The notes: a model not told the origin generated them from the letters alone. A stretch of 64,000 bases of DNA from Candidatus Curtissbacteria bacterium RIFOXYA1_FULL_41_14 (GCA_001775095.1 MFCA01000025.1:116075-180074); one strand, 5' to 3'; shown: positions 13,475 to 27,628, numbered from the stretch's first letter. A program made the numbers and translations.

Positions 13475-14488
13475 TCACACCGGGTGCGAAACAAGTTTTT
13501 TCAACTCTTGCTGCCAGTTGGGTTTTGAAATATCAAAAAGCCTAATTTTGGGAAACTTTTTAAACCAGGTTTTTTGGCGTCTGATAAAACTATGAACGTT
13601 GCCTCTTAGGCGGTTAATCGCTTCTCTCTGACTGATTTTGCCCGAAAGGTATCTTGATATCCAGCGACATTCAAGGCCAAGATCATCAAGCCACTGGGGG
13701 CTAACCCTTTTCTCTAGAAGTGTTTGAACTTCTTCAATCATTCCGTGCTCCAATCGTTCCTCAAGCCATTTATCAGCGCGGCTGTAAAGATAATTGTTTG
13801 GTGCGGTTAAGCCGATGATTTGATATTCCCCATCAAGCGACACACCCGGTGTGCGCTTTGACGCGACCCCGCTCACACCGGGTGTGAGATAGGAAGCGCG
13901 AGCGATTTCAATCGCGCGAATCAAGCGTCTTGGGTTTTGACGATCCGACTCATTCATACTCTTCGCTCTTTTTGGATCAATCTTTTCAAGTTTTTGATAA
14001 AGATGATCAATCGATAATTTCTCAAGCTCTCGGCGAAGTGTTAAGTCAGAAGGAATGCCGACTGATCCAATTCCATCGAGCAATGCTTTAATATAAAATC
14101 CTGTACCGCCCACTACAATCGGTAATTTCTTTGATACTATGATTTGAATCATAGTATCAGAAGCAAATTTTAAAAAATCTGATACCGAAAAAATTCCTTG
14201 CTCCGAACCCGGTTCGCGCAAAGATCCATCTGGGCTCGAATCGGGTTCGTATCTGGGTGGTTCCACAAGGTCGAAGCCGTGGATTTTGACACCATCGACA
14301 ATCCAGAAACCTTTGTGCTTTTCGACTTTTGATTTGAAGGAGGCTTTACCTGTTGTGATATCAAGATTCTGATATACCTGTCTTGAATCGGCTGAAATAA
14401 GTTCACCCTGAAACTTGCGTGCAAGTTGAAGGGCTAAGGCAGTTTTACCTGTTGCTGTCGGTCCATAAATAATCAATCTCTTTTTCAT
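13475..14488 (-). CDS. miaA: tRNA dimethylallyltransferase, with in-frame palindromic-repeat insertions
   Basis: P-loop 'GPTATGKT' and IPPT core. About 30 aa longer than typical MiaA. Carries a repeated 'TPGVS' peptide encoded by GC-rich palindromes. Confidence 0.85.
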   Translation of the reverse strand: MKKRLIIYGPTATGKTALALQLARKFQGELISADSRQVYQNLDITTGKASFKSKVEKHKGFWIVDGVKIHGFDLVEPPRYEPDSSPDGSLREPGSEQGIFSVSDFLKFASDTMIQIIVSKKLPIVVGGTGFYIKALLDGIGSVGIPSDLTLRRELEKLSIDHLYQKLEKIDPKRAKSMNESDRQNPRRLIRAIEIARASYLTPGVSGVASKRTPGVSLDGEYQIIGLTAPNNYLYSRADKWLEERLEHGMIEEVQTLLEKRVSPQWLDDLGLECRWISRYLSGKISQREAINRLRGNVHSFIRRQKTWFKKFPKIRLFDISKPNWQQELKKLVSHPV

Positions 14489-16383
14489 CTAATTTGATAG
14501 AGCTTGTAATCAGGTCCGCCAGAAACAAAAGTAAAATTTTTGGCAAAATAATCTTCATTGAGTCGTGGTTCAAAATTGCGTTCGCGAGGACTTATTAATA
14601 CATAGTCAACCTTATACTTATTAAAAAGAAAGGATGGGCCACCTTTAAACATTGTGTGCACATCGGTTTCTCTTTGACTCCAATCGGCAAGTCCCCAAGA
14701 CCAGGCATTACCTGGAAATCCAATGATAATTTTTCTACCGGCAAGGGCAGTAACTGGGTGATCATGAATTGCTGCTGTTAAGATAAGAGACCTTGGTTCT
14801 GTTTTTGCTATGATTACATCGGCAAGTTCGATATCATTTCGAGACCATAGATTTATTTTGGTTTTTTGAGTGTTAAATATCCTTGTTACCTCAATAACTC
14901 CGGAAATGATAAGTGTTATAAACAATACTGTTGCGATAATTTTTCCTAGATCGTTTTTTTTATAAAAATATAACAAAGATTCTGCAACAAAGAATGCTCC
15001 AATTAGATACCAATAGGTCATTATTTTCAAATTATCGTATGGCCAAGGTGCAAAACGGATAATATTTGGCAAAATGAATAAAATGACTGAGGCTATCAGT
15101 ACATTTCTGGCAACCGGAGCCAGCTTTATTTTAAAAATAGCAAAAATAAAAAGAGGCCAGAAGAATCCAGTGTTTTTAAACCAGAATAAAAAAATATTCT
15201 CATGTCCTTTCATCCATCCCCAATTAAGTCCAACTGTCTGGCTCAAATTCAAAGATATGAATAAAGGTAACTGAATAAGACCAAGGGTTACTATCGGCAA
15301 CAAAAAACAAAAGATAATTGCTGCTAAATGACTTTTGGCTTTCGCCAAACCGTATTGAATAAAATCAGTAAGAATTGTAAGAGGAATTAAAACGCTAATT
15401 AAGAATAAGAAGCTAAGATATGAATGCATGTGGAAAAAGGGCATAATGGCTACTAAACAACCAGAGGCCAGTAAGTACGAATTTTTGTTCCTAGAAATAC
15501 CCAGAATCAAAAATATCAAGCCAAGTAAGAACATCGGCAAACCAAAAAGGAATCCTCTTTGAGGGAGAAGCTCTGAATATAAGAATGAGAAAAACCATAA
15601 ATTTTTCTCCCCATAAAAAGTGTATTCATGGGGAGGAAATAATAAAGTTTGCCAAAAGTTTGATGATGTCAGCAGGTCTTGCAAGAAGTACAAAAAACCC
15701 AATCCACCCCAAAAAATACCTATAAATAAACCAACTATTGCTGTTTTTTTTGAGCCGGTTAAGATAATTCCTAGAAAGTAAATCAAGACTATGACAGATA
15801 TACCCAAAATTATCCCAGGTATTATTAAAGATGTTTTTAAACTAGCCCCTAAAACCTGCAGAACAGCGGATAAGAAATCGGCGAAAAAAGGATAGGAGAT
15901 AGTTTGACCAGCATAAAGTGGATTTTGGGGAGGAAAATTATTCCCATGAACAAATGAGGAAATAATTGCTATATGGACCGGCCAATCTGTCCAAACGAGG
16001 CGGTTACCGGCAATGATACCATTTTCGTTAACATAGATTGATTTGAAAAAAAAGACGACTATAAATATTCCCAGAACTAAAAGACTGCCAACAATAAAGG
16101 GATTCTTTTTAACTTCTAATTTTCCAAAAATTTCGAAAGCTCCAGGTCTTTTAGTTAAAAAAATTAATGATGGGAAAAATGTCAAGGAGGTTGCTATTAA
16201 AACATTCGTTATATTAAGGCCGAACACTTGTGAAATCCCAAAAATTACAAGAATATTTACAATAACTCCAAGAATGATTGCAAAGAAAATTTTTATATAT
16301 GAGGGAAGAACTATTTTTACTGCTTCCATAATGGCCAGGCCGAGACCCATGGAGGCGAAAAAGAAAAGTAGTGTGAGTGGCAT
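14485..16383 (-). CDS. large polytopic membrane protein with a periplasmic C-terminal domain; paralog of 16422..18152; GT-C-like glycosyltransferase only suspected
   Basis: ~13 predicted TM segments. Shared motifs with its paralog: 'NFPPQNPLYAG..YPFFADFLSA' and C-terminal 'GFPGNAWSWG'. Confidence 0.5.
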   Translation of the reverse strand: MPLTLLFFFASMGLGLAIMEAVKIVLPSYIKIFFAIILGVIVNILVIFGISQVFGLNITNVLIATSLTFFPSLIFLTKRPGAFEIFGKLEVKKNPFIVGSLLVLGIFIVVFFFKSIYVNENGIIAGNRLVWTDWPVHIAIISSFVHGNNFPPQNPLYAGQTISYPFFADFLSAVLQVLGASLKTSLIIPGIILGISVIVLIYFLGIILTGSKKTAIVGLFIGIFWGGLGFLYFLQDLLTSSNFWQTLLFPPHEYTFYGEKNLWFFSFLYSELLPQRGFLFGLPMFLLGLIFLILGISRNKNSYLLASGCLVAIMPFFHMHSYLSFLFLISVLIPLTILTDFIQYGLAKAKSHLAAIIFCFLLPIVTLGLIQLPLFISLNLSQTVGLNWGWMKGHENIFLFWFKNTGFFWPLFIFAIFKIKLAPVARNVLIASVILFILPNIIRFAPWPYDNLKIMTYWYLIGAFFVAESLLYFYKKNDLGKIIATVLFITLIISGVIEVTRIFNTQKTKINLWSRNDIELADVIIAKTEPRSLILTAAIHDHPVTALAGRKIIIGFPGNAWSWGLADWSQRETDVHTMFKGGPSFLFNKYKVDYVLISPRERNFEPRLNEDYFAKNFTFVSGGPDYKLYQIR

Positions 16384-16421
16384 CTAATTATTTATTTTAA
16401 TACAGTTGATATACTATTAAC

Positions 16422-18152
16422 ATGTGGGTATTGCTCTCTCCTGCACTGGGACTTTTTGTTTTTACCCAATTGGCCCTGATTCTCGCCTTCATTTTTGGGG
16501 TCGGTTATACTTCAATCTCTCTTGCCTTGTTATTGACAGTAGTTTTATCCTTATTTTGCTTTCTCAAATTCAAACAAGAATTTTTACTCAAAAATATTTC
16601 AGTCCTGTTTCTTTCAACCATCTTTTTGGTAACGATTTTTTTTGCGTATATCTGGCTAACACAAACCCTGGCAGTTTCTCCTGAAGGATTCAAAACCGGC
16701 GGTGGAGGAATGTATGGGGATACCGCATTGCATGCTGCTTATACTTCTCGTCTAGAGACTGATAATTTTCCAATCCAAAATCCTCTTTTTGCTGGCCATG
16801 TTCTTGTTTATCCTTTTGCCAATGATTTGCTTTCGGCAACTCTCAAAATCATAGGCTTAAATTTTAACCTGGCTTTTTCTTTGCCGCAGATTTTGTTTTT
16901 AATTGGGTTTTTGGCGCTGTTTTATCAGATTACAAGAAAGTTTACTTCTGATTTTGGATTTTTGGCAGCCTTATTTATTCTATTCCTGGGCTGGGGTATC
17001 GGGGCGTTATTTTTCTCTAAAGAATGGATGGTATCCGGCTCATCTTTCTGGCAATTTTTGACCCATGATTATACAGATAATTCTCAATACAATTTATACT
17101 TTCATAATATTTTGACAGGGCTGGTATTCCCCGAGCGCAGTTTCCTACCGGGATTATTTTTGGGACTTTTTATGTTTTGGAATTTCTTGGAATATTTCAA
17201 AAGGCAAAATCGGATACTTCTTGTAATAAATGGGGTAGTTCTCGGGGCTTTACCGTTTTGGCATACTCATACTTTTATTTTCTTTCTGTTTGCCAGTGTG
17301 ATTTTTGCCCTGTGGTTAATGGGAAAAAATTTCAAAAAGGCTTTTATCGATTTTTTCTTAATGTCGATAGTGGCTTTGGTGATGACGATCCCTTTTCTAA
17401 TTTTGTTTTTCTCAAATCATGAGGTTGGTCAATTCTTGCATACAAATTTTGGGTGGCAAAACGGAAATGAGAATATTTTAGTCTTTTGGTTTAAGAATTC
17501 GTTCCTTACTATTCCATTGGCAATTCTAGGATTTATCCTGATTCCCAGAAATCAAAAAATATTTTTTATTCCTGCCTTCGTTGTCTTCGTAATTGCAAAC
17601 TTTGTTATCTTCCAACCTTGGGATTGGGATAACATAAAATTACTCTCATGGTCTTTTATCTTCTTTGCTATTCTAATGGGATTTTTACTCGCAAAATTCG
17701 CGCAAAAAGGAATAGTTGCAAAAATTATTGTTGGGTTTATCATTCTAACTTCTGTAGCTAGCGGATCTTTGTCTTTAGCATTGCAATTAAAAAATAAGTA
17801 CATGATTTATGATAAAGCGGATATCGATCTTGCCGACTGGGCAAGGAAAAACTCAGGCGTTGATGAGGTTTTTTTAATTGAACCCACCCCGAACCATCCA
17901 ATTCCGGGACTTGCCGGAAGGTTAGTTTATATGGGTTATCCTGGACATCTTTGGGTACATGGAATTAATTACCAAAAGAGAGAAACTGAAAATAGTCTAA
18001 TTTTGGCTGGTGATTTTACGCAAATTAATAATCTAGAGACACCAATTTCATACATCGTACTTTCAAGAAGCGATTTGACTTTTAAAATACCATCAGATAT
18101 TCAGGCAGCTTATCAAAATCAAAAATATAGGGTTGTAAGAATTAATCAATAA
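16422..18152 (+). CDS. large polytopic membrane protein, paralog of 14485..16383, divergently transcribed
   Basis: 'NFPIQNPLFAG..YPFANDLLSA' and 'GYPGHLWVHG' match the neighbouring paralog. Confidence 0.5.
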   Translation: MWVLLSPALGLFVFTQLALILAFIFGVGYTSISLALLLTVVLSLFCFLKFKQEFLLKNISVLFLSTIFLVTIFFAYIWLTQTLAVSPEGFKTGGGGMYGDTALHAAYTSRLETDNFPIQNPLFAGHVLVYPFANDLLSATLKIIGLNFNLAFSLPQILFLIGFLALFYQITRKFTSDFGFLAALFILFLGWGIGALFFSKEWMVSGSSFWQFLTHDYTDNSQYNLYFHNILTGLVFPERSFLPGLFLGLFMFWNFLEYFKRQNRILLVINGVVLGALPFWHTHTFIFFLFASVIFALWLMGKNFKKAFIDFFLMSIVALVMTIPFLILFFSNHEVGQFLHTNFGWQNGNENILVFWFKNSFLTIPLAILGFILIPRNQKIFFIPAFVVFVIANFVIFQPWDWDNIKLLSWSFIFFAILMGFLLAKFAQKGIVAKIIVGFIILTSVASGSLSLALQLKNKYMIYDKADIDLADWARKNSGVDEVFLIEPTPNHPIPGLAGRLVYMGYPGHLWVHGINYQKRETENSLILAGDFTQINNLETPISYIVLSRSDLTFKIPSDIQAAYQNQKYRVVRINQ

Positions 18153-18158
18153 TTGAGA

Positions 18159-19544
18159 TTAGTCGAATGGCTGGGGAGAACTTGGGTAAATTTGGTCAAG
18201 ATTTAAGATAATAATTATGTTAACGGCTAAAAAGATAATAAAAATCGTCATAAGAATTATCTTCTGATAGGCTGGTTTTAGAAAAAAGCTGCCAGTTAAA
18301 ATTAATAAAGGTACTGCTAAAATCCACTGCCATGTTTTTGCAAGCTGCGGAGTAAGCAGTAGAAAAAATCTGATCGTTGAAGATCCAATAATTAAATAGA
18401 AAAATAAAGATTTTAGTAAGTCTGGGTTTTGCCAAAGATCATGGAGGAGTTTTGCAAGAACAATTACGAGGAATGGAAAGAAGGGGAAGTAGTGCCATCC
18501 ATAAAAAGTTACATCTCCACCTTCTAGAATAGCTGAAACAGAAAGCAGGGAGAATGGGATTGCTAAGAACAGTTTAAAATTGTCATCATTCTTCGTATTT
18601 TTTAATAGCCAAAACGGGGAAGTAAAAAGTAATAGGTAACCAGCCAGGATTGATCCATCGAGAAAAATCTTCTCTTTATGGCCGATTACTGGGTATTGAA
18701 TAATTGAATATATAATTTGAGGAAGCCCAAGCGAATGAGCCTTTCGATAATCCTCAAGAACAGCCAAAAATAAATCCCAATCGTAATAAAGACCAATTAG
18801 CGGGTGTATGAGACCAGAGACTAAGGAAATAATGCTTATAATCACTACGTATCTCCATTTTTTTTTCAAAAGTAAGATTCCTATTAAGGCGATTGGCAGA
18901 AAGACACCAATGTCTTTAGTCAAAAGTGCCAGACCAGAACAGAGCCCTAACAGGTATGGTTTGGCAGTCTGCCATTTTCCTTTAGTTCTCAGAGAAAAAA
19001 TTAATAGAGCCAATAAAGTTATCGGGGTGAGTAAGTTTTCAGTTATCGATAGCCGATTGGCCATGACAATGGTTGGAATTGTTGCATAAAGGCTAGCGGC
19101 GATTAGGGCGGCTATGCTGTTAAAGAGTCTTTGAGTAACTAGCCCGATTAAAATTATGGTGATAACGCTTAAAGTTATCGGCACCAATCTGATTGTTGAA
19201 AGCCGTACTTCTTGGAGATTATCTTGGCCAAACATTAAGGCAACTATACCGGTTATTAGTGGATAAAGAGGTGGCTTTTCCATCCACGGAGAAACGATAT
19301 AATACCCTATTCCCCACGAGCTGAATAGTCCAACTGTATGCTCTTCTCCATATGAAGGGAACATCGACCAAGAAGATGGCGTACCTTTTGTCAGGAAAGT
19401 AATTCCTGCCCACGGATACATGAACTCATCCATTGTTTCTTTAAAAGGAGGTAATCTATCATAATTAATTAATCGAAGCGTTAAGCTGAGAAAGGCAATA
19501 AGGGCAAGCAAGAGATAGAACCCTGATTTGGACATTAAAAACAT
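18159..19544 (-). CDS. GT-C-fold membrane glycosyltransferase, ArnT/PMT-like
   Basis: Multi-TM protein with an N-terminal loop 'DEFMYPWAG' (DE motif). Confidence 0.5.
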   Translation of the reverse strand: MFLMSKSGFYLLLALIAFLSLTLRLINYDRLPPFKETMDEFMYPWAGITFLTKGTPSSWSMFPSYGEEHTVGLFSSWGIGYYIVSPWMEKPPLYPLITGIVALMFGQDNLQEVRLSTIRLVPITLSVITIILIGLVTQRLFNSIAALIAASLYATIPTIVMANRLSITENLLTPITLLALLIFSLRTKGKWQTAKPYLLGLCSGLALLTKDIGVFLPIALIGILLLKKKWRYVVIISIISLVSGLIHPLIGLYYDWDLFLAVLEDYRKAHSLGLPQIIYSIIQYPVIGHKEKIFLDGSILAGYLLLFTSPFWLLKNTKNDDNFKLFLAIPFSLLSVSAILEGGDVTFYGWHYFPFFPFLVIVLAKLLHDLWQNPDLLKSLFFYLIIGSSTIRFFLLLTPQLAKTWQWILAVPLLILTGSFFLKPAYQKIILMTIFIIFLAVNIIIILNLDQIYPSSPQPFD

Positions 19545-19571
19545 TATAGAGATTTAAGGTAAAATAAAAAA

Positions 19572-21080
19572 GTGAATCTGTGTAAAGCTTCAATAGTATT
19601 TTTGTTTGGAATAACCTTTTTAGGTTTTATATTGCGAATTTCTAACCTGGCCTCCAGTCCTGCCGGCCTATATATTGATGAAACATCTATTGGTTATAAT
19701 GCTTACTCTTTAATTACTACAGGTGGTGACGAACACGGCAAATTTTTGCCGCTTTTTTTTGAGGCATTTGGAGAATATAAGCTCCCTATTTATATTTACT
19801 CTGTGGCATTTGTTCAATTATTTCTTGGACCAACTGATCTTTCTGTTCGCCTACCCGCTGTCATCTTTGGGACACTTACGATACTACTTATTTTTTTTCT
19901 TTCAAAGGAGCTACTAAGGAATAACTCTAATCAGACTCTAAAAGTGTATGTGCCCCATCTGGCAGCATTTCTTCTAGCTATTTCTTCATGGCATCTACAA
20001 TTTTCAAGACCTGGGTTTGAAGCAAGTGTAGGTCTCTTTTTCCTGACACTTGCTTTATACACTTTTTTCAGGGCAGTTAGAGAAAACTCTACTTTTGTTT
20101 TGAGTATCTCGACCTTGAGTTTCGTCCTGACTCTCTATTCCTATAATAGCGCGAGGATTGTAACACCGATAGTTCTTGCGACATTACTAATTCTTTATTT
20201 TAAGAAGTTCCCTTTATTTACCTGGGTGAAGGTTCTTTTGATCGGCACAGTTATTGCTTTACCTTTTATTATTTTCTCGGTAAGCCTCGAAGGTTTACTA
20301 AGGGCAAGGCAGGTTTCTATTTTTTTTCAATCTACCAATAACTCAATTTTAAAACAGTTTCTCATAAACTACTGGGCAAATATTTCGCCCTTTTATCTTT
20401 TCATGAAAGGTGACCCAACGATAGCCCATTTGACTTCCCATCGGATGAGTCTTCTATATTTGGTCGAATCTCCATTTTTCTTTTTCGGTTTTGCAATGTT
20501 ATTTATTAAAAGATCGAGAGAATATTTTTTTGTCTTGATACTCCTTTTAACAGCGTTTATTCCACCTGCAATTTCTACTCTAAACCCTCATGCTCTTCGC
20601 TCTGTCTTGGTTTTGCCTGCAACAGTTTTTATCTCTGCTTTGGGATTTGGATATTTTTTGGCAATATTTAAAAGTAAAGATTTTCAAAAAATTGCTGCGG
20701 GAGTATTCGTTGCCATACTATCAATATCAACATTGCGATTTTTGAATGTTTATCATAATAAGTATGTAATCGATGCGGGCTGGGATTGGCAGGTAGGGAT
20801 CAGAAGGGCGAGTCAACGGGTTTTGGAAGTCGAGAATAAATATAATGATATATATTTTGATTTGGATCCTCGACGAATTCCTTTAGTTTGGTACTTGAAA
20901 ATCAATCCTAAACTTTATCAAACCAATCCAAACAAAAATCATCTAGGAAAGTACCATATAAACGAGAATATTTCCTCTGTACATGGTTTATATATCGGTC
21001 TTCAGCAACCTGAAGGGAAATTATTAGAATACGTATATTATCCTAATAATACAGTTGCATATGGAATTTGGGAATTCTAA
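19572..21080 (+). CDS. glycosyltransferase family 39-like (PMT_2 / ArnT-like) membrane protein
   Basis: GTG start. First-loop motif 'YIDETSIGYNAYSL', ~11 TM. Confidence 0.55.
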   Translation: MNLCKASIVFLFGITFLGFILRISNLASSPAGLYIDETSIGYNAYSLITTGGDEHGKFLPLFFEAFGEYKLPIYIYSVAFVQLFLGPTDLSVRLPAVIFGTLTILLIFFLSKELLRNNSNQTLKVYVPHLAAFLLAISSWHLQFSRPGFEASVGLFFLTLALYTFFRAVRENSTFVLSISTLSFVLTLYSYNSARIVTPIVLATLLILYFKKFPLFTWVKVLLIGTVIALPFIIFSVSLEGLLRARQVSIFFQSTNNSILKQFLINYWANISPFYLFMKGDPTIAHLTSHRMSLLYLVESPFFFFGFAMLFIKRSREYFFVLILLLTAFIPPAISTLNPHALRSVLVLPATVFISALGFGYFLAIFKSKDFQKIAAGVFVAILSISTLRFLNVYHNKYVIDAGWDWQVGIRRASQRVLEVENKYNDIYFDLDPRRIPLVWYLKINPKLYQTNPNKNHLGKYHINENISSVHGLYIGLQQPEGKLLEYVYYPNNTVAYGIWEF

Positions 21081-21098
21081 AAAGATAAAATAGAAAAA

Positions 21099-22403
21099 GT
21101 GATAAACATTGACAGATTTTCCATTGCTTTTATCATTTTTCTGACATTTTTTTCGCTTATTCTTCGCACCTACCGGCTGACTGAGCCGAATCATTATTAC
21201 TTTGATGAGGTTTATCATGCGGTTACTGCCAAGGCTTATGCAGATAATAATCCGGCAGCATATAATCCTTTTTCACCGCCGCCTAAAGAAGGGACAGCTT
21301 ATGACTGGCTTCACCCGCCTCTTGCGAAATTAATCCAGGCAGGATCAATAAAAATCTACGGGGATGTGTCTTTCGGGTGGCGTTTGCCAAGTTTGGTCTT
21401 TGGAACTGCAATTATTCCTGCTACTTTTATTCTTGCCTATATCCTTTTTGGTCCACTGGCAGCCATTTTTGCATCGACTGTTATTGCCTTTGAAAATCTG
21501 ACGTTTGTGATGAGCCGTATTACGATGAACGATGTATTTGTGACCTTTTTTGTGATTGTGTCGTTCATTTTTGCTGCTTTGTATGTTAAATCCACCTCCC
21601 AAGAGTCAAAGTCCACCTCGAAGGTTACTCTCTATTTATTATTGACAAGTATTTTCTTAGGACTTGCCTTGGCATCGAAGTGGACCGGACTTTACGCCAT
21701 AGTTGTTATTTTCGGGTATATTGTCTGGCCAAGTATCAAGAAGAATGAATTCTATTTTAAATTTTTACTGCTTTTAATAGTTCCAATTCTGATTTATCTT
21801 GGCAGTTACGGACAGTTTTGGATTCAAGGCCATAGCATCCGACAGTTTATTGATCTTCACAAACAAATTTGGTGGTATCAAAATACACGAAATCTTAAGC
21901 ATTCCTATTCAACAACACCGCTTTACTGTGTTCCAGAAGGTTTGGACGGACCTAAAACTTGGTGCCCGTGGGCCTTGGATACTCGGGGCGTCTATTTTTC
22001 ATATGAACAGTACGGCACTAAGGCCGGCTACATTTATGCGCTGGGGAATCCGTTGATTCTATGGGCAGGAATTGTGGCTGTTTCTTATCTTATTGGAAAA
22101 TTTATTGAGGAAAAATCAAAAACATATCTTTTGGTGCTTGCGGGTTATTTTATCTTTTGGCTGCCCTGGATTTTTACTCCGCGGGTTTTATTTTTTTACC
22201 ATTATCTTTCCTCAATACCGTTTCTGTCGATTGCGCTTGGATTAACCCTCGCTAAATTATTTGGAACAAAACTTGTGTTTATTTCGATTTTAATCCTGGG
22301 AATTTTTATAGCGGTCTTTTTCTATTTTTACCCGATATCATCCGGTTGGCCAATTGAGGTTGCGGCTATTGAAAAATACATGTGGCTTAAGACCTGGCGT
22401 TAG
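21099..22403 (+). CDS. glycosyltransferase family 39 (polyprenyl-phosphate-mannose protein mannosyltransferase-like)
   Basis: Canonical PMT first-loop motif 'YFDEVYHAVTA', polytopic. Confidence 0.7.
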   Translation: MINIDRFSIAFIIFLTFFSLILRTYRLTEPNHYYFDEVYHAVTAKAYADNNPAAYNPFSPPPKEGTAYDWLHPPLAKLIQAGSIKIYGDVSFGWRLPSLVFGTAIIPATFILAYILFGPLAAIFASTVIAFENLTFVMSRITMNDVFVTFFVIVSFIFAALYVKSTSQESKSTSKVTLYLLLTSIFLGLALASKWTGLYAIVVIFGYIVWPSIKKNEFYFKFLLLLIVPILIYLGSYGQFWIQGHSIRQFIDLHKQIWWYQNTRNLKHSYSTTPLYCVPEGLDGPKTWCPWALDTRGVYFSYEQYGTKAGYIYALGNPLILWAGIVAVSYLIGKFIEEKSKTYLLVLAGYFIFWLPWIFTPRVLFFYHYLSSIPFLSIALGLTLAKLFGTKLVFISILILGIFIAVFFYFYPISSGWPIEVAAIEKYMWLKTWR

Positions 22404-22472
22404 CTAAACTTCGCGAATTGGATGCGAATTTGATTAATGCGAATAGATGCGAATGAGCGTATGGGTACTGAC

Positions 22473-23747
22473 TTAGTGAACGGCACTTCGAGGATTACCT
22501 TTGTGATTAATTAGCTTATCAAGGATCTGGAAGCGGCGCTGTTTTTCTTTGTAGGAAACATCATCGTCAAACGCTTTCGCAGCGGCAGTATTTGGTCGAG
22601 GGGAGTATTTGGCAATATAAGCATAGGCAAAATTAACTGTTTGAGCTAACTTAACTGTGTTTTGAAAATTTCTTTCGCTTTCTTGGCAAAAGCCGACAAT
22701 AATATCTGTCGAAATCTGAGTGTCGGGAATCTCCTTTCTGATTTTTTTGACCAAATTGATATACTGGCTCGCTGTATACCATCTATTCATTTTTTTAAGC
22801 ATTTGGTCATCTCCGGACTGAACAGGCAGATGAATGTTTCTGTCAATTTTGGGATTTTTGGAGATTGTCTCGATGAGCTCATCGGAAAAATCCCAGGGAT
22901 TTGAAGAAATGAATTTAACCGTTTCAACTCCCCCACTTCGTCCGGCTTTGCCGGACTTCGAGGGGCAAGCTTCTATTTTGCAAACTTCTTCAAGAAGATA
23001 AGGAAACAATGTTGGAATTCGCAATTTTCCCAAATGCTTTACCATCACCGGTTTAACTACTCGACCATTAGGAAGCTTATAACCGGCTTTTGTATTTTTG
23101 ACTCGATCAGATCCATATGAATTAACATTTTGGCCAAGGAGGGTAATTTCTCGGCATCCTCTTTCCGCCAGTTCTTTGACTTCATCGATAACATCTTCAA
23201 ATGGCCTTGATACTTCTTGCCCTCTGGTAAAAGGTACGACGCAATAAGTACAAAAATTATTGCAGCCGTTGGAAATTGGTATCCAAGCATGAGTTGCGTC
23301 ACTTCGAAGTGCCGGATAATTAAAACCAACCTCTTCCAGAGGTAAAAATTCATCAACTTGGGGTATTCTCTTGTGAAGAGTATTAAGATACTTACCACTC
23401 GTGTCCCTGGCGACCATTCCAGTCATGCAGCCGGTAAGAACAATTTTAGGCCTCCGGCCCGGTCTCCGACGTAGAGACGTCTCTGACTCGGAACGAGGGC
23501 CTCCGGCCCGGTGGGCCTCTTTGATAATATTTCTGATAAATCCGGTCACTTTATCTTCTGCAGATTGACGGACCATGCAGGTGTTGATGATTATTTCAGA
23601 AGCTGATTTGAGATCCTTTGCCCTTTTAAAACCCCTTGCCAAATAGTAACTGGCAATTCTTTGGCTATCTGCCCAGTTTTGCTGGCAACCGAAAGTTTTG
23701 ATGTAAAATGTAGGAGATTTCATTGTTAAATTGTTAAATACGCACAA
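22473..23747 (-). CDS. radical-SAM methylthiotransferase (MiaB/RimO family), with two in-frame GC-rich repeat insertions
   Basis: N-terminal MTTase 'KTFGCQQNWADSQ', radical SAM core and TRAM-like C-terminus. Insertion peptides are 'RAGGPRSESETSLRRRPGRRP' and 'CPSKSGKAGRSGG'. Confidence 0.7.
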   Translation of the reverse strand: MCVFNNLTMKSPTFYIKTFGCQQNWADSQRIASYYLARGFKRAKDLKSASEIIINTCMVRQSAEDKVTGFIRNIIKEAHRAGGPRSESETSLRRRPGRRPKIVLTGCMTGMVARDTSGKYLNTLHKRIPQVDEFLPLEEVGFNYPALRSDATHAWIPISNGCNNFCTYCVVPFTRGQEVSRPFEDVIDEVKELAERGCREITLLGQNVNSYGSDRVKNTKAGYKLPNGRVVKPVMVKHLGKLRIPTLFPYLLEEVCKIEACPSKSGKAGRSGGVETVKFISSNPWDFSDELIETISKNPKIDRNIHLPVQSGDDQMLKKMNRWYTASQYINLVKKIRKEIPDTQISTDIIVGFCQESERNFQNTVKLAQTVNFAYAYIAKYSPRPNTAAAKAFDDDVSYKEKQRRFQILDKLINHKGNPRSAVH

Positions 23748-23796
23748 TATATCGATTTAACGATTTATGTCAGAGAAATTCTATCACAAGCAAAAC

Positions 23797-24204
23797 TCAG
23801 CCGAAAATCTTGGGGATAAAGATCAGTAATCCAATAATAACCGCTGCAATCGACAAAATTAAAACACCGCCGGCAGCACAGTGTTTGGCAAGTTTGGCTT
23901 TCGGATGTAAATCTGGATGCAGAAGGTTACAGGTTTCCTCGATAGCGGTATTTAGAGCCTCGGCTGCGATAACTGCTGATGAGATTAAGATTACTGCTAG
24001 CCATTCCAGAAGACTAATCGAGAAAATAAATCCCAAAACAGACACCAGAGCAAAGGCTAAAATATGGATCCTAAAATGTAACCCTTTTTGAAAACTGTAA
24101 ACCAGGCCCTCAATGGCATAGCCAAAACTATTAATTTGATGCTTAACAAAGCCATCCCGATGTTCCATGTAAATAATCTTATCACTTATTCGACTACACA
24201 GCAT
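23797..24204 (-). CDS. dgkA: diacylglycerol/undecaprenol kinase (DgkA family)
   Basis: 3-TM protein with the DgkA signature 'EALNTAIE'. Confidence 0.75.
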   Translation of the reverse strand: MLCSRISDKIIYMEHRDGFVKHQINSFGYAIEGLVYSFQKGLHFRIHILAFALVSVLGFIFSISLLEWLAVILISSAVIAAEALNTAIEETCNLLHPDLHPKAKLAKHCAAGGVLILSIAAVIIGLLIFIPKIFG

Positions 24205-24245
24205 CCGTCATCCTGAGTCCGGCTTTGCCGGACGAAGGATCTAGA

Positions 24246-25031
24246 CTATGTGGAAATAGACGAATATCTTCTAAGAGCAAAATGCCAAAATTTGATGCCT
24301 ATTCCAAAAAAAGTTAGACCGATAGCAAAAGAAATCAATATCCACTGCCAGGATAAAATTCCGAGAAGCACTTTGGCAGGAATCGAAACCATTACCGCAA
24401 TTGGGATAATAAAGGTTAAAACAAATTGGACTAGTGATGAATAAATATCAACAGGGAACCGCCCCATTGTCATTAAATCCCGATAAACCCAAATTTCGGA
24501 AGAGATTTCTTGAGTCAGAATAGAAAGGGCGATAATAACAACATGGATGGAGAAAGCGATTAGAAGTGCATTGAAGCAGAGAAGCAAATAGAAAATAAAG
24601 TTATAAAAAGTGATGGATGTTTCCAGTCTCGCAACGATTATTCCTAAAACTATTACCACTGGTACTAAAGTGGCTAAATCCAGAAGGTCAATAATATCTG
24701 AAACAATTCTAAATAATGTGTTTACCGGCTGAGTAAGAATATAATCTATTTCTCCTTTATTAATCATCCAGCCAATCGCATATGCACTCCTTAGGAAAAA
24801 CTGACTTACGATATCAATTAAATTGAATGTCATAAAAAAAAGTAAGGTTTGATAGAGGCTAAACCCGGCCAAGGTTTGGGTTTTGGTTAAAAGGGCAATA
24901 ATAAAAATAAAAAAGAAAGAGAAACGAATTAACTTTCCTGAAATCAAAAATATTGAATGGAGACGCGATTCAATGTAATATTCACGAAATCTCATCTTGG
25001 CTAATCTCGTCCATACTCGTAGGTATTTCAT
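24246..25031 (-). CDS. ABC-2 type transporter permease
   Basis: 6-TM ABC-2 topology. Start trimmed to 'MKYLRV' because the upstream codons are two palindromic repeats. Confidence 0.55.
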   Translation of the reverse strand: MKYLRVWTRLAKMRFREYYIESRLHSIFLISGKLIRFSFFFIFIIALLTKTQTLAGFSLYQTLLFFMTFNLIDIVSQFFLRSAYAIGWMINKGEIDYILTQPVNTLFRIVSDIIDLLDLATLVPVVIVLGIIVARLETSITFYNFIFYLLLCFNALLIAFSIHVVIIALSILTQEISSEIWVYRDLMTMGRFPVDIYSSLVQFVLTFIIPIAVMVSIPAKVLLGILSWQWILISFAIGLTFFGIGIKFWHFALRRYSSIST

Positions 25032-25134
25032 AATTTGAAATTCCTGCCTGCCGGCAGGCAGGTGCAATTTGACATTTGAAATTCCCGGCCTTGTCTCGAC
25101 TTTGTCGAGGACGGGTTGAAATTTGAAATTGATA

Positions 25135-25932
25135 TTAGCCTCCCCAGGCTTCATAAGCTTTTAAGCCTTTGTTCCAAACAAATTTTGTAACTGAAAAAAC
25201 CGCAAAAAGCCAAAGTGTTGAGATCAAGATTACCCGAATCGACTCAATATATGATAATTTACCAAGAAAAATACTGATCGGATAATATAAAAGATAAGGA
25301 AATGGGGTTAGTTTGATAACAGATTGAATGGTAGCTGGCAATACATCCAACGGAAAATAAGCGCCTGCTGAAAATTCCAGTATCAAGAGCATCATAAATT
25401 GTAAGCCCCAGACTTGAGGGGTCCAAAATCCCGTCGTTGACACTAAGATACCCATGTAAAAATAAATTAAAATTGCAATAAAGGTTGCTAGCAAAAATAA
25501 CAAAAAAGTTAATATTCCTGCCGGTTGAACAAAAGGAATTTGGAAAAAAATAGTTGGAATAATAATTATTAGAATAATTGAAACCAGGCTAGTTAATTTA
25601 TAGACTAAATCAACGGTAAACCAATAGGAAAAATAACCAATCGGTTTTAATAAGTAAGAGAAAAATTTTCCCCATGATTGTAGTTCCTGAGCAATCTGAT
25701 CAGTCGCGCTGATAATTACAAATTGGCGAAGAATAGTCGCTAAGAATACATAAGTAATAATCTGTTCCCTGTCAAAATTAAAAAGAATTATTCTTGTCTT
25801 AAAAACTTGTGTCCAAAGAAAATATAAAGTGATCAAAAGTAAAATAGCCCGAAATTGACTAATTAAATATTCCCAGCGGTAAACAAGAACATTAGCAAAT
25901 GTGATTCGCGCGACTGCGAGATATTTCCTCAT
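25135..25932 (-). CDS. ABC-2 type transporter permease
   Basis: 6-TM permease overlapping the ATPase gene. Confidence 0.6.
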   Translation of the reverse strand: MRKYLAVARITFANVLVYRWEYLISQFRAILLLITLYFLWTQVFKTRIILFNFDREQIITYVFLATILRQFVIISATDQIAQELQSWGKFFSYLLKPIGYFSYWFTVDLVYKLTSLVSIILIIIIPTIFFQIPFVQPAGILTFLLFLLATFIAILIYFYMGILVSTTGFWTPQVWGLQFMMLLILEFSAGAYFPLDVLPATIQSVIKLTPFPYLLYYPISIFLGKLSYIESIRVILISTLWLFAVFSVTKFVWNKGLKAYEAWGG

Positions 25933-26906
25933 TTATTTTTTGCAAAAATTAATCTGATTATTTCTTCGATCGGCGGTTCCTCTATCGAAAGATCGTTAAT
26001 CGGCAACCGCTTGAGAAGTTGGCCGGTGACATCAGCCACCCTGTTTCTTTCAACCTCAATTTTGGCATTTGAAAGATCAAAATTAATAATCGTTCCATAT
26101 TCCTTAAGATTTTCTTTATCGATTTCTTTTGTAAAATCAAGACTAATGATTTTATTCTTGGCAAACTTTGTTACTATTTTTGAAAGTTTACCGTCGTAGA
26201 TAATTTTCCCACTGTTAATAATAATTACACGCTCGCAAAGCTTTTCGACATCATCCATATAGTGAGATGTCAGAATTATTGTGGCATTAAATTTCTGGTT
26301 GTAGTCTTTAATAAAATCATGCATGTTTTTCTGGGCAATAATATCAAGACCGATTGTCGGCTCATCCAGGAAGAGAACTTTGGGTTGGTGAATCAGCGCC
26401 GCGACAAGTTCAGCCTTCATCCGTTGCCCAAGCGATAATTTTTTTACTTGGGTTTTCAAAAGGTCACCAATATCTAATATTTGTGAAAGATAGTCTATCC
26501 GCTGTCTGAAATCCTTATCGGAAACTTCATAGATTTCTTTATTGAGAAGAAATGTTTCATAAGCAGGTAGATCCCACCAGAGTTGATTTTTTTGACCAGC
26601 CACAAAGACAATTTGTTTTTGAAAATTGCTTTTTCTTTGCCAGGGGATAAATCCTAAAACTGAGATTTCGCCGGATGTTGGATAAAGAAGACCGGACAAA
26701 ACTTTGAGGGTTGTTGTTTTACCGGCCCCATTTGGCCCAATAAAACCTACTAATTCTCCCTCTTCAATTTTAAAAGATATGTTATCCACTGCTTTGGTTT
26801 CTTTGTATTTTCGATGAAAAAATGATTTTAGAGTTTGACCTATTCCGGGATTTTTTTGCGGAACTTTATATATTTTTGTCAGATTTTGAACCTTGATCAC
26901 AGTCAT
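25929..26906 (-). CDS. ABC transporter ATP-binding protein
   Basis: Walker A 'GPNGAGKTT', ABC signature 'LSLGQRMK', Walker B 'LFLDEPT'. Confidence 0.85.
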   Translation of the reverse strand: MTVIKVQNLTKIYKVPQKNPGIGQTLKSFFHRKYKETKAVDNISFKIEEGELVGFIGPNGAGKTTTLKVLSGLLYPTSGEISVLGFIPWQRKSNFQKQIVFVAGQKNQLWWDLPAYETFLLNKEIYEVSDKDFRQRIDYLSQILDIGDLLKTQVKKLSLGQRMKAELVAALIHQPKVLFLDEPTIGLDIIAQKNMHDFIKDYNQKFNATIILTSHYMDDVEKLCERVIIINSGKIIYDGKLSKIVTKFAKNKIISLDFTKEIDKENLKEYGTIINFDLSNAKIEVERNRVADVTGQLLKRLPINDLSIEEPPIEEIIRLIFAKNK

Positions 26907-26955
26907 GTCTGAATTCTAGCATAGACTTACGATATTAATTCTGTCCAGAAGTTAT

Positions 26956-27161
26956 GTCATCGCGAGTCGAATCTTGTTCGACGTGGCGATCTTTTATATT
27001 CGCTCGCAGAACACCGTGGACTATTAGTCCACGGATGAATGCGAGAGAATACATACTTCCGAGGAGCGGGATGTTCTGCTCGCTCATGTAAACTTAAAGA
27101 ACAATACCGAGGACTCTTAGCCCTCGGAAGTTTATAGATTGCTTCGCTGCGCTCGCAATGA
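26956..27161. repeat. ~206-bp structured element with terminal inverted repeats 'GTCATCGCGAG...CTCGCAATGAC' and several internal perfect hairpins
   Basis: Termini are reverse complements of each other. Internal palindromes include 'CCGTGGACTATTAGTCCACGG' and 'CCGAGGACTCTTAGCCCTCGG'. The 97-aa ORF inside it is likely spurious. Confidence 0.5.
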
Positions 27162-27233
27162 CAACATCTTCTTCTTTCAGTCGGGTTGATTTTTAGCCTT
27201 ATTTGGGGTATATTGCAGCCTTGGAGGGAACAA

Positions 27234-27617
27234 ATGCCGGAATATGACAAAGAGAGAGCTGCAGGGAGTCTGACTGGTGAAACAACTAGTACCAGTTCTG
27301 ACGAAGCGATCAGGGCAATTCTTAGAGATTTAGCTCGTGAATATCACGGTCTCCGTAACACAGAGAAGACTGATGACGCAGAATTGTTCTCAGCAACAGA
27401 ACAATTGCCTCCGAGACCGATAGGCAGTACATTCCAGCAACCCATAATTACTGAAATTAAGCTTCCTGATTCTTTGAGAGAACCTTCTGAGGAATTAACT
27501 GGAAATCAAATTGCGGGGATTAAAGCAGAACAAAAGGTAGCGTATGCGGAACAAGATGATAGGAAAAGACGAAAATTTCGTTTTCCCCTTGGACTTCTAA
27601 ACGTACTTTTGCATTAA
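27234..27617 (+). CDS. hypothetical acidic low-complexity protein
   Basis: Upstream 'TTGATT-17-TATATT' and RBS 'GGAGG' 7 nt before the ATG. No recognisable domain. Confidence 0.45.
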   Translation: MPEYDKERAAGSLTGETTSTSSDEAIRAILRDLAREYHGLRNTEKTDDAELFSATEQLPPRPIGSTFQQPIITEIKLPDSLREPSEELTGNQIAGIKAEQKVAYAEQDDRKRRKFRFPLGLLNVLLH

Positions 27618-27628
27618 GATTTTAGAAA

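Follow-up and report, generated by a model that had tools for sequence, protein, structure and literature searches.

Through the analysis of a 64,000-nucleotide stretch of DNA (the window) from Candidatus Curtissbacteria (CPR/Microgenomates), five consecutive genes, A to E, have been identified that probably all encode GT-C glycosyltransferases; A and B fall into an unnamed family, here called X, which would work with a GT-C enzyme of the PMT/PMT_2 type, and the nearby MiaB, DgkA and ABC transporter genes would merely be neighbours. GT-C enzymes act at the outer face of the cytoplasmic membrane, where they pass a polyprenyl-phosphate-linked sugar to a cell-surface acceptor (protein or wall glycopolymer), and nearly all major cell-surface glycoconjugates are built or decorated by them. 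The list of GT-C families continues to grow, e.g. with GT136 in 2024 (PMC11127046). An earlier note on this DNA had read the whole region as one coherent glycosylation locus. This reading is only partly supported: there is a real GT-C cluster with a new GT-C family.

Organization of the gene cluster

The five polytopic membrane genes lie back to back at 14485-22403, in a row as described in the earlier note, but their strands (-, +, -, +, +) do not strictly alternate as it had stated. The genes of the stretch are listed in Table 1. In the ABC operon (24246-26906) the reading frames of the three genes overlap. An Rfam scan of the window gave a tRNA-Pro gene as its only match, and a promoter scan found 42 sites against 41.9 expected.

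Table 1. Genes of the GT-C cluster and of the adjoining region (positions in the window)
Gene	Position	Strand	Length (aa)	Features
A	14485-16383	-	632	Family X; 14-TM GT-C core and ~128-aa extracytoplasmic C-terminal domain, AglB C-terminal domain-like
B	16422-18152	+	576	Family X paralog of A, divergent, 38-nt intergenic gap
C	18159-19544	-	461	PMT_2-type GT-C; first-loop motif MDEFMYPWAG
D	19572-21080	+	502	Borderline PMT_2-type GT-C; first-loop motif YIDETSIGYNA
E	21099-22403	+	434	PMT + PMT_4TMC (GT39-like), no MIR domain; first-loop motif YFDEVYHAVTA
MiaB tRNA methylthiotransferase	22473-23747	-	424	TIGR01574 (E 3.7e-95); Radical_SAM + UPF0004
DgkA-family lipid kinase	23797-24204	-		PF01219 (DAGK_prokar), 104.7 bits, E 2.6e-30
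ABC permease	24246-25154	-		PF06182 ABC2_membrane_6
ABC permease	25135-25932	-		PF06182 ABC2_membrane_6
ABC ATPase	25929-26906	-		PF00005; best match DrrA subfamily, below cut-off

Genes A and B

The proposed kinship of A and B is confirmed: the proteins are paralogs from end to end (29% identity, E 3e-60), and the shared motifs QNPL(Y/F)AG-x4-YPF and G(F/Y)PGxxWxxG are found in their translations. The predicted structures (pLDDT 92.3 for A and 91.0 for B) contain a polytopic membrane core with a GT-C fold, whose top structural matches are STT3/AglB/PglB, ArnT, DPY19 and PMT. Behind this core comes a globular C-terminal domain, extracytoplasmic and of the OST core fold, which the C-terminal domains of AglB, STT3 and PglB match. 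The models thus match GT-C structures and do not point to a non-glycosyltransferase family, an outcome that the earlier note had left open.

The alignment of 38 sequences of family X (27-67% identity) has 24 invariant columns, and its invariant polar residues all lie on extracytoplasmic loops, according to a topology derived by the positive-inside rule. The family possesses characteristic features: (i) an invariant Asp (D133 in A, D100 in B) inside W(T/G)DWPxH of the first loop, external by the same rule, which is a single acid and neither a DxD nor a DE pair; (ii) a conserved C-terminal motif, (Y/F)PGxxWxxG; (iii) the most conserved Trp/Asp motif, PWxWDNxK, located in the loop before the last two transmembrane (TM) helices.

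Family X resembles STT3/AglB/PglB (CAZy GT66) in the order of membrane core and C-terminal globular domain and in the conserved Asp of the first external loop. In contrast to these enzymes, gene A has 14 predicted TM helices, the extra ones being N-terminal, the PWxWDNxK motif lies outside the C-terminal domain, and sequence similarity is not detectable. Neither A nor B matches the STT3 profiles PF02516 and TIGR04154, STT3 is reached at E <= 1 by 0 of the 38 family members, and neither A, B nor the family X consensus shows the WWDYG motif; PDB sequence searches with A, B and the 38-sequence profile returned nothing relevant and no OST. A kinship of the family X profile with gene E was rejected (hhalign probability 0.3%). 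Pfam scans of the 38 members gave sub-threshold matches to DUF6798 (8 sequences), Dpy19 (2) and DUF2298 (1), which were unused for classification, and literature searches on GT-C enzymes in Patescibacteria, CPR O-mannosyltransferases, DUF6798 and TIGR03663 yielded nothing on family X. Judged by its sequences, family X appears to be a new GT-C family, without an entry in Pfam or NCBIfam.

Genes C, D and E

The Asp-Glu motifs announced for these three proteins have all been located in the translations (MDEF in C, IDET in D, FDEV in E), each at most 45 residues after TM1. Gene C matches PF13231 (PMT_2; E 4.8e-15, 56.6 bits), with weak matches to NF046093 and archaeal STT3, both under cut-off. Gene D passes the PF13231 cut-off narrowly (27.6 against 26.1 bits) and scores 251 bits with a PMT-like profile made from the neighbours of X. 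Only gene E combines PF02366 (PMT; E 6.6e-23, 82 bits) with PF16192 (PMT_4TMC; E 1e-13, 51.7 bits). PDB sequence searches with C, D and E found no match.

Like the GT39 enzymes (Pmt1/2/4, bacterial Pmt), gene E has both PMT domains and a loop-1 DE motif; unlike them, it is devoid of MIR domains and reaches 72.8 bits against a cut-off of 800 for the NCBIfam bacterial Pmt equivalog NF058602, which C and D do not match at all. The label "at least three GT-C/GT39" of the earlier note is, as regards GT39, apt for E, as a GT39-like protein, but not for C and D, which match only the generic PMT_2. A GT39 label for all three is too specific; the targets of PMT_2 proteins in Gram-positive bacteria are teichoic acids and wall polysaccharides (PMC8035078). 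A and B also depart from GT39, having no profile similarity to E.

PMT proteins adjacent to X in other lineages align with gene E in phmmer (Beckwithbacteria 3.7e-71, Gottesmanbacteria 8.2e-63, Dormiibacterota 3.1e-27), and gene E is a homolog of the PMT-type partner that adjoins X in other phyla.

MiaB, DgkA and ABC transporter genes

That DgkA, two permeases and an ATPase follow the membrane proteins is correct insofar as all are present, but MiaB, which lies between E and DgkA, had been overlooked. MiaB does not belong to a glycosylation module and separates the GT-C genes from DgkA. The MiaB, DgkA and ABC genes are all minus-strand genes, convergent with E, and they therefore constitute a separate transcription unit.

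It is highly improbable that the whole 12.4-kb stretch is one unit, with DgkA regenerating undecaprenyl-phosphate, the ABC-2 transporter exporting or flipping a lipid-linked glycan and the five GT-C enzymes using it. All the components do lie inside 12.4 kb, Gram-positive homologues of DgkA are undecaprenol kinases, and a second Curtissbacteria genome (L001, 67% identity) shows the same order ABC2-DgkA-MiaB-E-D-...-B-A-MiaA. However, the order conserved in L001 also takes in MiaA, an AI-2E transporter and purine genes, hence it reflects whole-genome synteny rather than a module, and a tRNA-modification gene stands between the two convergent groups. DgkA accompanies the GT-C genes only in the Curtissbacteria relatives L001 and L010, the latter (54% identity) having no ABC genes beside DgkA. 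Among the loci compared, DgkA and ABC genes occur neither at the Gottesmanbacteria and Beckwithbacteria clusters nor at any non-CPR X locus.

A glycan-exporting role of the ABC-2 transporter, suggested earlier, also finds no backing. In contrast to the Wzm/Wzt and TagGH exporters, the permeases belong to PF06182 and not to the Wzm/TagG-type ABC2_membrane, the DrrA-like ATPase (below cut-off) has no glycan-binding C-terminal domain, and neither L010 nor the genomes outside Curtissbacteria retain the linkage to glycan genes.

The GT-C genes are clustered, not scattered, in relatives, in agreement with the earlier note. Gottesmanbacteria keep two X genes side by side with three PMT_2 and one PMT gene, without DgkA, ABC, MiaA/B or other housekeeping neighbours, which indicates that the clustering of GT-C genes goes beyond general synteny. 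Support for a link between the GT-C genes and DgkA or the ABC genes is thus lacking, and both look like unrelated neighbours.

Distribution of family X and its proposed GT-C partner

Family X comprises about 5,600 clusters at 50% identity and is present in at least 586 species. Of 80 species loci, 46 have a PMT/PMT_2-type GT-C as the direct neighbour of X and 50 have one no more than two genes away; among the rest, many are truncated by contig ends or merged by the ORF caller. The arrangement recurs across many bacterial phyla. Pfam analysis of the neighbours revealed PMT_2 downstream in 35/54 and PMT + PMT_4TMC upstream in 9/46. The pair stands amid unrelated housekeeping genes (YchF, SMC, DnaE), so that conservation concerns the pair as such. 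In the window, A does not adjoin E and is translationally coupled to miaA; adjacency in this compact genome can thus be non-functional, which counts against the proposed partnership. Long X proteins of Dormiibacterota and Chloroflexi were rejected as fusions, being ORF-caller extensions in high-GC DNA. A single X-PMT_2 fusion (P0176, 1135 aa) was not counted as evidence: numerous genes of its contig are fragmented, and an indel artefact may account for it.

The partner differs between lineages. In the CPR it is of the gene-E (PMT) type, and elsewhere of the type of Agl23/TIGR03663, a Haloarcula hispanica GT-C-type protein implicated in the use or flipping of Dol-P-hexose. Bona fide TIGR03663 members, with 221-248 bits against a cut-off of 126.25, occur beside X in Acidobacteriota, anammox bacteria and two other loci (L029, L015, L008 and L005 in all), whereas gene D, at 30.3 bits, stays below that cut-off. 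Agl23 has been studied in archaea only (PMC11182771).

Relatives with a GT2 gene are L013, L015, L027, L025, L007 and L089; ArnC/PgfS/AglJ-like GT2 genes directly adjoin X in anammox loci, L025, L007 and L089, and these GT2 proteins are of the polyprenyl-monophosphate-sugar synthase type. In anammox bacteria, PA14 lectin-type domains are fused both to X and to its partner. The GT2 neighbours and the PA14 fusions both speak for a carbohydrate-related role, the former also, indirectly, for a polyprenyl-linked sugar donor.

A very unlikely explanation is that X is a divergent oligosaccharyltransferase (OST), moving a glycan en bloc from polyprenyl-diphosphate to protein, i.e. a bacterial AglB analogue with an Agl23-type partner. 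The AglB-, STT3- and PglB-like C-terminal domain and the true TIGR03663/Agl23 partner in several phyla are consistent with it, as are the anammox bacteria, in which the pair and a GT2 coincide with a heavily O-glycosylated S-layer (PMC5088730; this glycan-structure paper names no transferase). Against it, neither WWDYG nor a DK/MI-type motif is recognisable in X, Pfam STT3 and TIGR04154 do not match, the adjacent GT2 proteins are of the monophosphate type, and neither an initiating phosphoglycosyltransferase nor a Wzx flippase was seen in the X loci examined.

Proposed function of the cluster

Under the favoured reading, A-E would transfer sugars from a polyprenyl-phosphate-linked donor to a surface protein or wall glycopolymer on the outer side of the cytoplasmic membrane. 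In X, a transmembrane core resembling STT3/AglB is joined to a small, AglB-like C-terminal domain on the extracytoplasmic side. Its putative active site is placed at the membrane-periplasm interface and would be formed by the invariant Asp-x3-His of the first loop (WTDWPVH), the Arg with which TM7 begins, HxH at the TM8/9 turn and the PWxWDNxK loop. X and the PMT/PMT_2-type GT-C might perform consecutive steps on one acceptor or form a heteromeric complex. Catalysis by X, its donor, its acceptor and the physical partnership are what we infer from fold, conservation and gene neighbourhood. The single first-loop Asp counts against the favoured reading, as do the missing GT2, flippase and acceptor in the window and the report that Agl23, the TIGR03663 prototype, is a lipid-linked-glycan flippase (PMC11182771).

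It seems quite unlikely that X is instead a GT-C-fold accessory of the adjacent PMT/Agl23-type enzyme, e.g. a subunit that presents the acceptor or the donor, or a scramblase of lipid-linked sugars. Its pairing with a second GT-C looks obligate, and non-catalytic GT-C-fold proteins are known, PIGU and GAB1 being among the structural matches of X. Agl23 translocates lipid-linked oligosaccharide in proteoliposomes (PMC11182771), and two-protein GT-C systems with one member binding the acceptor have been speculated upon (PMC8035078). Nevertheless, some complete genomes, e.g. Bdellovibrio (L052), have an X gene with no PMT beside it, and its invariant first-loop Asp and extracytoplasmic His, Arg, Asp, Asn and Lys are kept down to ~27% identity, a pattern typical of an active site and not of a scaffold.

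In multi-component systems such as GtrABC, CsbB-GtcA-YfhO, GacI-K-L, GT136 and S. mutans Pgf, extracytoplasmic GT-C enzymes, often of the PMT_2 type, use C55-P-sugars made by a GT2 (PMC8035078; PMC11127046). The ArnC/PgfS-like GT2 beside X in several lineages corresponds to these systems, and the PA14 fusions have a parallel in GT-C-fused carbohydrate-binding modules. In contrast to them, the window has five GT-C genes with no GT2, GtrA, Wzx or MATE nearby, and the pairing of two different GT-C enzymes is foreign to the classical scheme. Neither phmmer, run against the ORFs of the window with three GT2 queries, nor Pfam on neighbours revealed a GT2 donor synthase, and there was no GtrA-, Wzx- or MATE-type flippase among the Pfam-scanned genes at 273-31393. 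The acceptor (pilin, S-layer) that the earlier note suggested seeking near the locus has no candidate in the window, where no class-III (pilin) signal peptides were found. Ser/Thr/Pro-rich ORFs were discarded as acceptors; they look spurious, since longer ORFs occupy the same DNA in a different frame or on the other strand.

Significance of family X

A bolder and, on balance, unlikely proposal is that X and its PMT/Agl23-type neighbour form an unrecognised, widespread two-GT-C machine, in which X would be OST-like and recognise a protein or wall acceptor via the AglB-like C-terminal domain, with the partner in charge of supplying, flipping or pre-modifying the lipid-linked donor. If true, its carriers, at least 586 species, would include CPR, Acidobacteriota, Dormiibacterota, Chloroflexota and anammox Planctomycetota, and it could explain orphan surface glycosylation, e.g. 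of the heavily O-glycosylated anammox S-layer. The likeness of family X to OST exceeds that of any other bacterial family except PglB. For annotation, the two "hypothetical proteins" A and B become "GT-C fold, OST-like", and DgkA and the ABC transporter should not be read as members of the pathway. The X-GT-C pairing offers a testable hypothesis of surface glycosylation for CPR episymbionts, soil Acidobacteriota and anammox bacteria.

Gene organization

The gene order was established from the ORF listing together with Pfam and NCBIfam scans. The five polytopic genes (A to E) described in the earlier note, the three DE motifs and the motifs common to A and B were all found in the sequence, and A and B are paralogs (full-length alignment, 29% identity, E 3e-60). 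The GT39 label holds for E only, as C and D are matched by the generic PMT_2 model. In Gram-positive bacteria, teichoic acids and wall polysaccharides are glycosylated by GT-C enzymes of the PMT_2 type (PMC8035078). Flanking genes encode purine biosynthesis, an AI-2E transporter, HU, RNase Y, RecX and RecA. The best database match of gene A is a hypothetical protein of Candidatus Curtissbacteria bacterium RIFCSPLOWO2_01_FULL_41 (100% identity), which places the window in a CPR/Microgenomates genome. The G+C content is 0.355-0.373 over the GT-C cluster (window 14000-22000) versus 0.40-0.44 over most of the window. The difference probably stems from membrane proteins rich in Phe, Ile, Leu and Lys and not from foreign origin.

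Coordinates and family matches of the GT-C genes and their neighbours
Feature	Position	Strand	Length	Match
MiaA	13475-14488	-	337 aa	IPPT
Gene A	14485-16383	-	632 aa	no family
Gene B	16422-18152	+	576 aa	no family
Gene C	18159-19544	-	461 aa	PMT_2, 56.6 bits
Gene D	19572-21080	+	502 aa	PMT_2, 27.6 bits (cut-off 26.1)
Gene E	21099-22403	+	434 aa	PMT, 82 bits; PMT_4TMC, 51.7 bits
MiaB	22473-23747	-	424 aa	TIGR01574, E 4e-95
DgkA	23797-24204	-	135 aa	PF01219
Permease	24246-25154	-	302 aa	PF06182 ABC2_membrane_6
Permease	25135-25932	-	265 aa	PF06182 ABC2_membrane_6
ABC ATPase	25929-26906	-	325 aa	PF00005

Fold and conserved residues of the A/B family

Searches of Pfam, NCBIfam and PDB sequences gave no significant match for A, B or the 38-sequence family profile (alignment A1); scans of individual members gave weak, sub-threshold matches to the GT-C-type families DUF6798, Dpy19 and DUF2298. 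The AlphaFold2 models of A (pLDDT 92.3, pTM 0.92) and B (pLDDT 91.0) are of high confidence. All 17 significant Foldseek matches in the PDB are GT-C enzymes (E 1e-7 to 2e-4, TM 0.41-0.49), namely the DPY19 C-mannosyltransferase, archaeal AglB, yeast and human STT3, PglB and ArnT. Since only GT-C enzymes occur among these matches, the predicted structures place A and B in a GT-C family with oligosaccharyltransferase (OST)-like architecture, here called family X. That X is a true en-bloc OST is a less likely rival explanation. By sequence X does not belong to GT66, there being no STT3 Pfam match and no WWDYG motif; the conserved C-terminal motif of family X is (Y/F)PGxxWxxG.

Conservation was measured over 38 sequences of 27-67% identity. 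In A numbering the invariant residues include D133 and H137 (WTDWPVH), Y164-P165-F166, R276, H318 with the near-invariant H320 beside it, G389-W390, F400-W401-N404 and W447-D450-N451-K453 (PWxWDNxK). B retains nearly all of these positions; in the B-centred alignment D100, H104, R239, D403, N404 and K406 are invariant, and at least 90% of sequences share H281, H283 and W400. Topology was assigned from the model helices and the positive-inside rule. Loops rich in Lys and Arg alternate regularly, giving 14 transmembrane helices in A, with the C-terminal domain and every invariant polar residue assigned to the extracytoplasmic side, the side on which GT-C active sites lie. D133 would be the first-loop acid, catalytic or metal-binding, and R276, H318 and H320 would serve as phosphate or metal ligands. 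This arrangement speaks against a second rival explanation, in which X is non-catalytic or of the flippase type.

Distribution

Searched exhaustively with HMMER, 1.84 billion representatives yielded 5,581 proteins at E <= 1e-3, of which 2,474 also pass E <= 1e-30. When one genome per GTDB species was scanned by motif plus tblastn, a relative was present in at least 586 species. Most of these belong to Acidobacteriota (Pyrinomonadaceae, Blastocatellia), Dormiibacterota, Chloroflexota and the anammox Planctomycetota (Kuenenia, Brocadia); the family also occurs in a Bdellovibrio isolate, Heliomicrobium MAGs and Microgenomates. Closely related genomes differ in copy number: a Curtissbacteria locus of 64% identity (L009) has a third X gene (642 aa). 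Gene C is split into two fragments in L009 and is absent altogether from another Curtissbacteria locus, L010.

The GT-C partner of family X

The entire gene order of the window, housekeeping genes included, is kept in a Curtissbacteria genome of 67% identity, which reflects general synteny and is little informative. At 40% identity, a Gottesmanbacteria cluster combines a divergent X-X pair with three PMT_2 genes, a PMT/PMT_4TMC gene and a 568-aa gene of no family, and contains no DgkA, ABC, MiaA or MiaB gene. On four unrelated non-CPR contigs a PMT or PMT_2 gene directly adjoins X, the frames overlapping or lying a few bases apart. An iteratively built profile, which never matches X itself, identified a PMT-like gene directly next to X in 46 of 80 species loci and within two positions in 50; many of the 30 negative loci are truncated contigs, and in five, of high GC, the ORF caller over-extended X across the upstream gene. 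Pfam bears out this pattern: the downstream neighbours are PMT_2 (35/54) or PMT (14/54), and the upstream ones PMT with PMT_4TMC (9/46) or the unrelated GTPase YchF (20/46). Because the context outside the pair is housekeeping (YchF, SMC, DnaE, PriA), the two-gene pair is the conserved unit.

Two kinds of partner were recognized. Members of TIGR03663 lie downstream in Acidobacteriota, anammox bacteria and two further loci (221-248 bits, cut-off 126); window gene D matches this model weakly (30 bits). Agl23 of Haloarcula hispanica, from which NCBI took the name of this family, is a GT-C-type protein for which flipping or use of hexose-P-dolichol has been proposed; when purified, it moves lipid-linked oligosaccharide across a liposome membrane (PMC11182771). 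PMT/PMT_4TMC partners homologous to gene E occur in Dormiibacterota (phmmer E 3e-27), a Deltaproteobacteria MAG (5e-8), Gottesmanbacteria (8e-63) and Beckwithbacteria (4e-71).

One predicted protein, P0176 (L089:6001-9408, 1135 aa), joins family X (residues 8-598) and PMT_2 (710-873), and a GT2 gene lies 13 nt upstream of it. Since this contig has numerous fragmented small genes, an indel may have created the apparent fusion. Additional Pfam-less genes occur within GT-C clusters of Gottesmanbacteria and of one other Curtissbacteria genome (L003:4607-6313, 568 aa; L012:4790-6646, 618 aa; L001:5430-6770, 446 aa), the first with a faint match to S. mutans PgfM1 (E 8e-4); they may represent another unrecognised GT-C-like family, and the window has no such gene.

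DgkA, the ABC transporter and tRNA-modification genes

The earlier note read the GT-C genes, DgkA and the ABC-2 exporter as one coherent locus, a rival explanation for which their proximity in the window speaks. Its gene list omitted MiaB, which separates the GT-C genes from the DgkA and ABC genes, and it did not take into account that these genes, MiaB included, all run in one direction on the minus strand as a block convergent on E. In a Curtissbacteria genome of 54% identity (L010) the ABC genes are not beside DgkA, and neither DgkA nor ABC genes occur in the Gottesmanbacteria and Beckwithbacteria clusters or at any non-CPR locus. By family the permeases are PF06182 and not Wzm/TagG proteins, and the ATPase is DrrA-like. 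DgkA and the transporter are thus very probably neighbours and not components, and the earlier interpretation as a whole is partly supported.

The stop codon of gene A overlaps the miaA start codon by 4 nt (window 14485-14488, minus strand), and the X-miaA arrangement is kept in three other Curtissbacteria genomes (L001, L009, L010). Here a gene for tRNA modification and one for a membrane glycosyltransferase apparently share a transcript. Close spacing in these compact genomes thus need not imply a common function. Both MiaB and MiaA carry short basic or low-complexity insertions (in MiaB, for example, ...AHRAGGPRSESETSLRRRPGRRPK... and ...EACPSKSGKAGRSGGVETV...), and the matches of MiaB to NCBIfam models are split into two or three stretches. 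From the end of the ABC ATPase gene to HU, a stretch of approximately 720 nt (window 26907-27628) has as its only ORFs two odd-looking ones of no family (97 and 143 aa); it contains a terminator-like hairpin (27127-27107, minus strand) and no Rfam match, and an unannotated small gene or RNA could lie here.

Carbohydrate context and proposed function

In anammox bacteria, C-terminal PA14 (and GLEYA) lectin-type domains are carried both by X (L013:9554-12490, L015:9911-12328) and by its TIGR03663 partner (L015:12325-14325); two further representatives also end in PA14 domains. Other GT-C enzymes with carbohydrate-binding modules offer a parallel (PMC11127046). Small GT2 genes adjoin the X-partner pair in Kuenenia, Brocadia, a Pseudonocardiaceae MAG, a Deltaproteobacteria contig and L089. 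Their best NCBIfam matches are polyprenyl-phosphate sugar synthases (ArnC, PgfS, AglJ, Dol-P-hexose transferase, PpgS), all below the curated cut-offs; the Pseudonocardiaceae protein scores 373.7 bits against PgfS (cut-off 500). At the Kuenenia and Brocadia loci the adjacent GT2 is ArnC/PgfS-like, and type II secretion/pilus genes (T2SSF) are close by. The 64-kb window contains no GT2 of the polyprenyl-phosphate-sugar-synthase type, no pilin- or S-layer-like acceptor and, among its genes scanned with Pfam (273 to 31393), no GtrA, Wzx or MATE flippase.

A to E are most likely five extracytoplasmic GT-C transferases using polyprenyl-phosphate-linked sugars made elsewhere in the genome, with A and B as members of a new OST-like GT-C family. 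Family X probably functions with a PMT/Agl23-type GT-C; the two would modify one acceptor in successive steps or form a heteromer. A protein acceptor is suggested by the AglB-like C-terminal domain and by the partner with PMT and PMT_4TMC, a glycan acceptor by the PA14 fusions and by what PMT_2 enzymes are known to do. Kuenenia, which carries X, partner and GT2, has a heavily O-glycosylated S-layer, for which the glycan-structure paper names no transferase (PMC5088730); this co-occurrence is a lead, not a test.

The GT-C superfamily and GT-C gene clusters are well known, and the cluster itself is unremarkable. What is new is a large, unnamed, predicted OST-like GT-C family, conserved beside a second GT-C in six or more phyla and duplicated as a divergent gene pair in Microgenomates.
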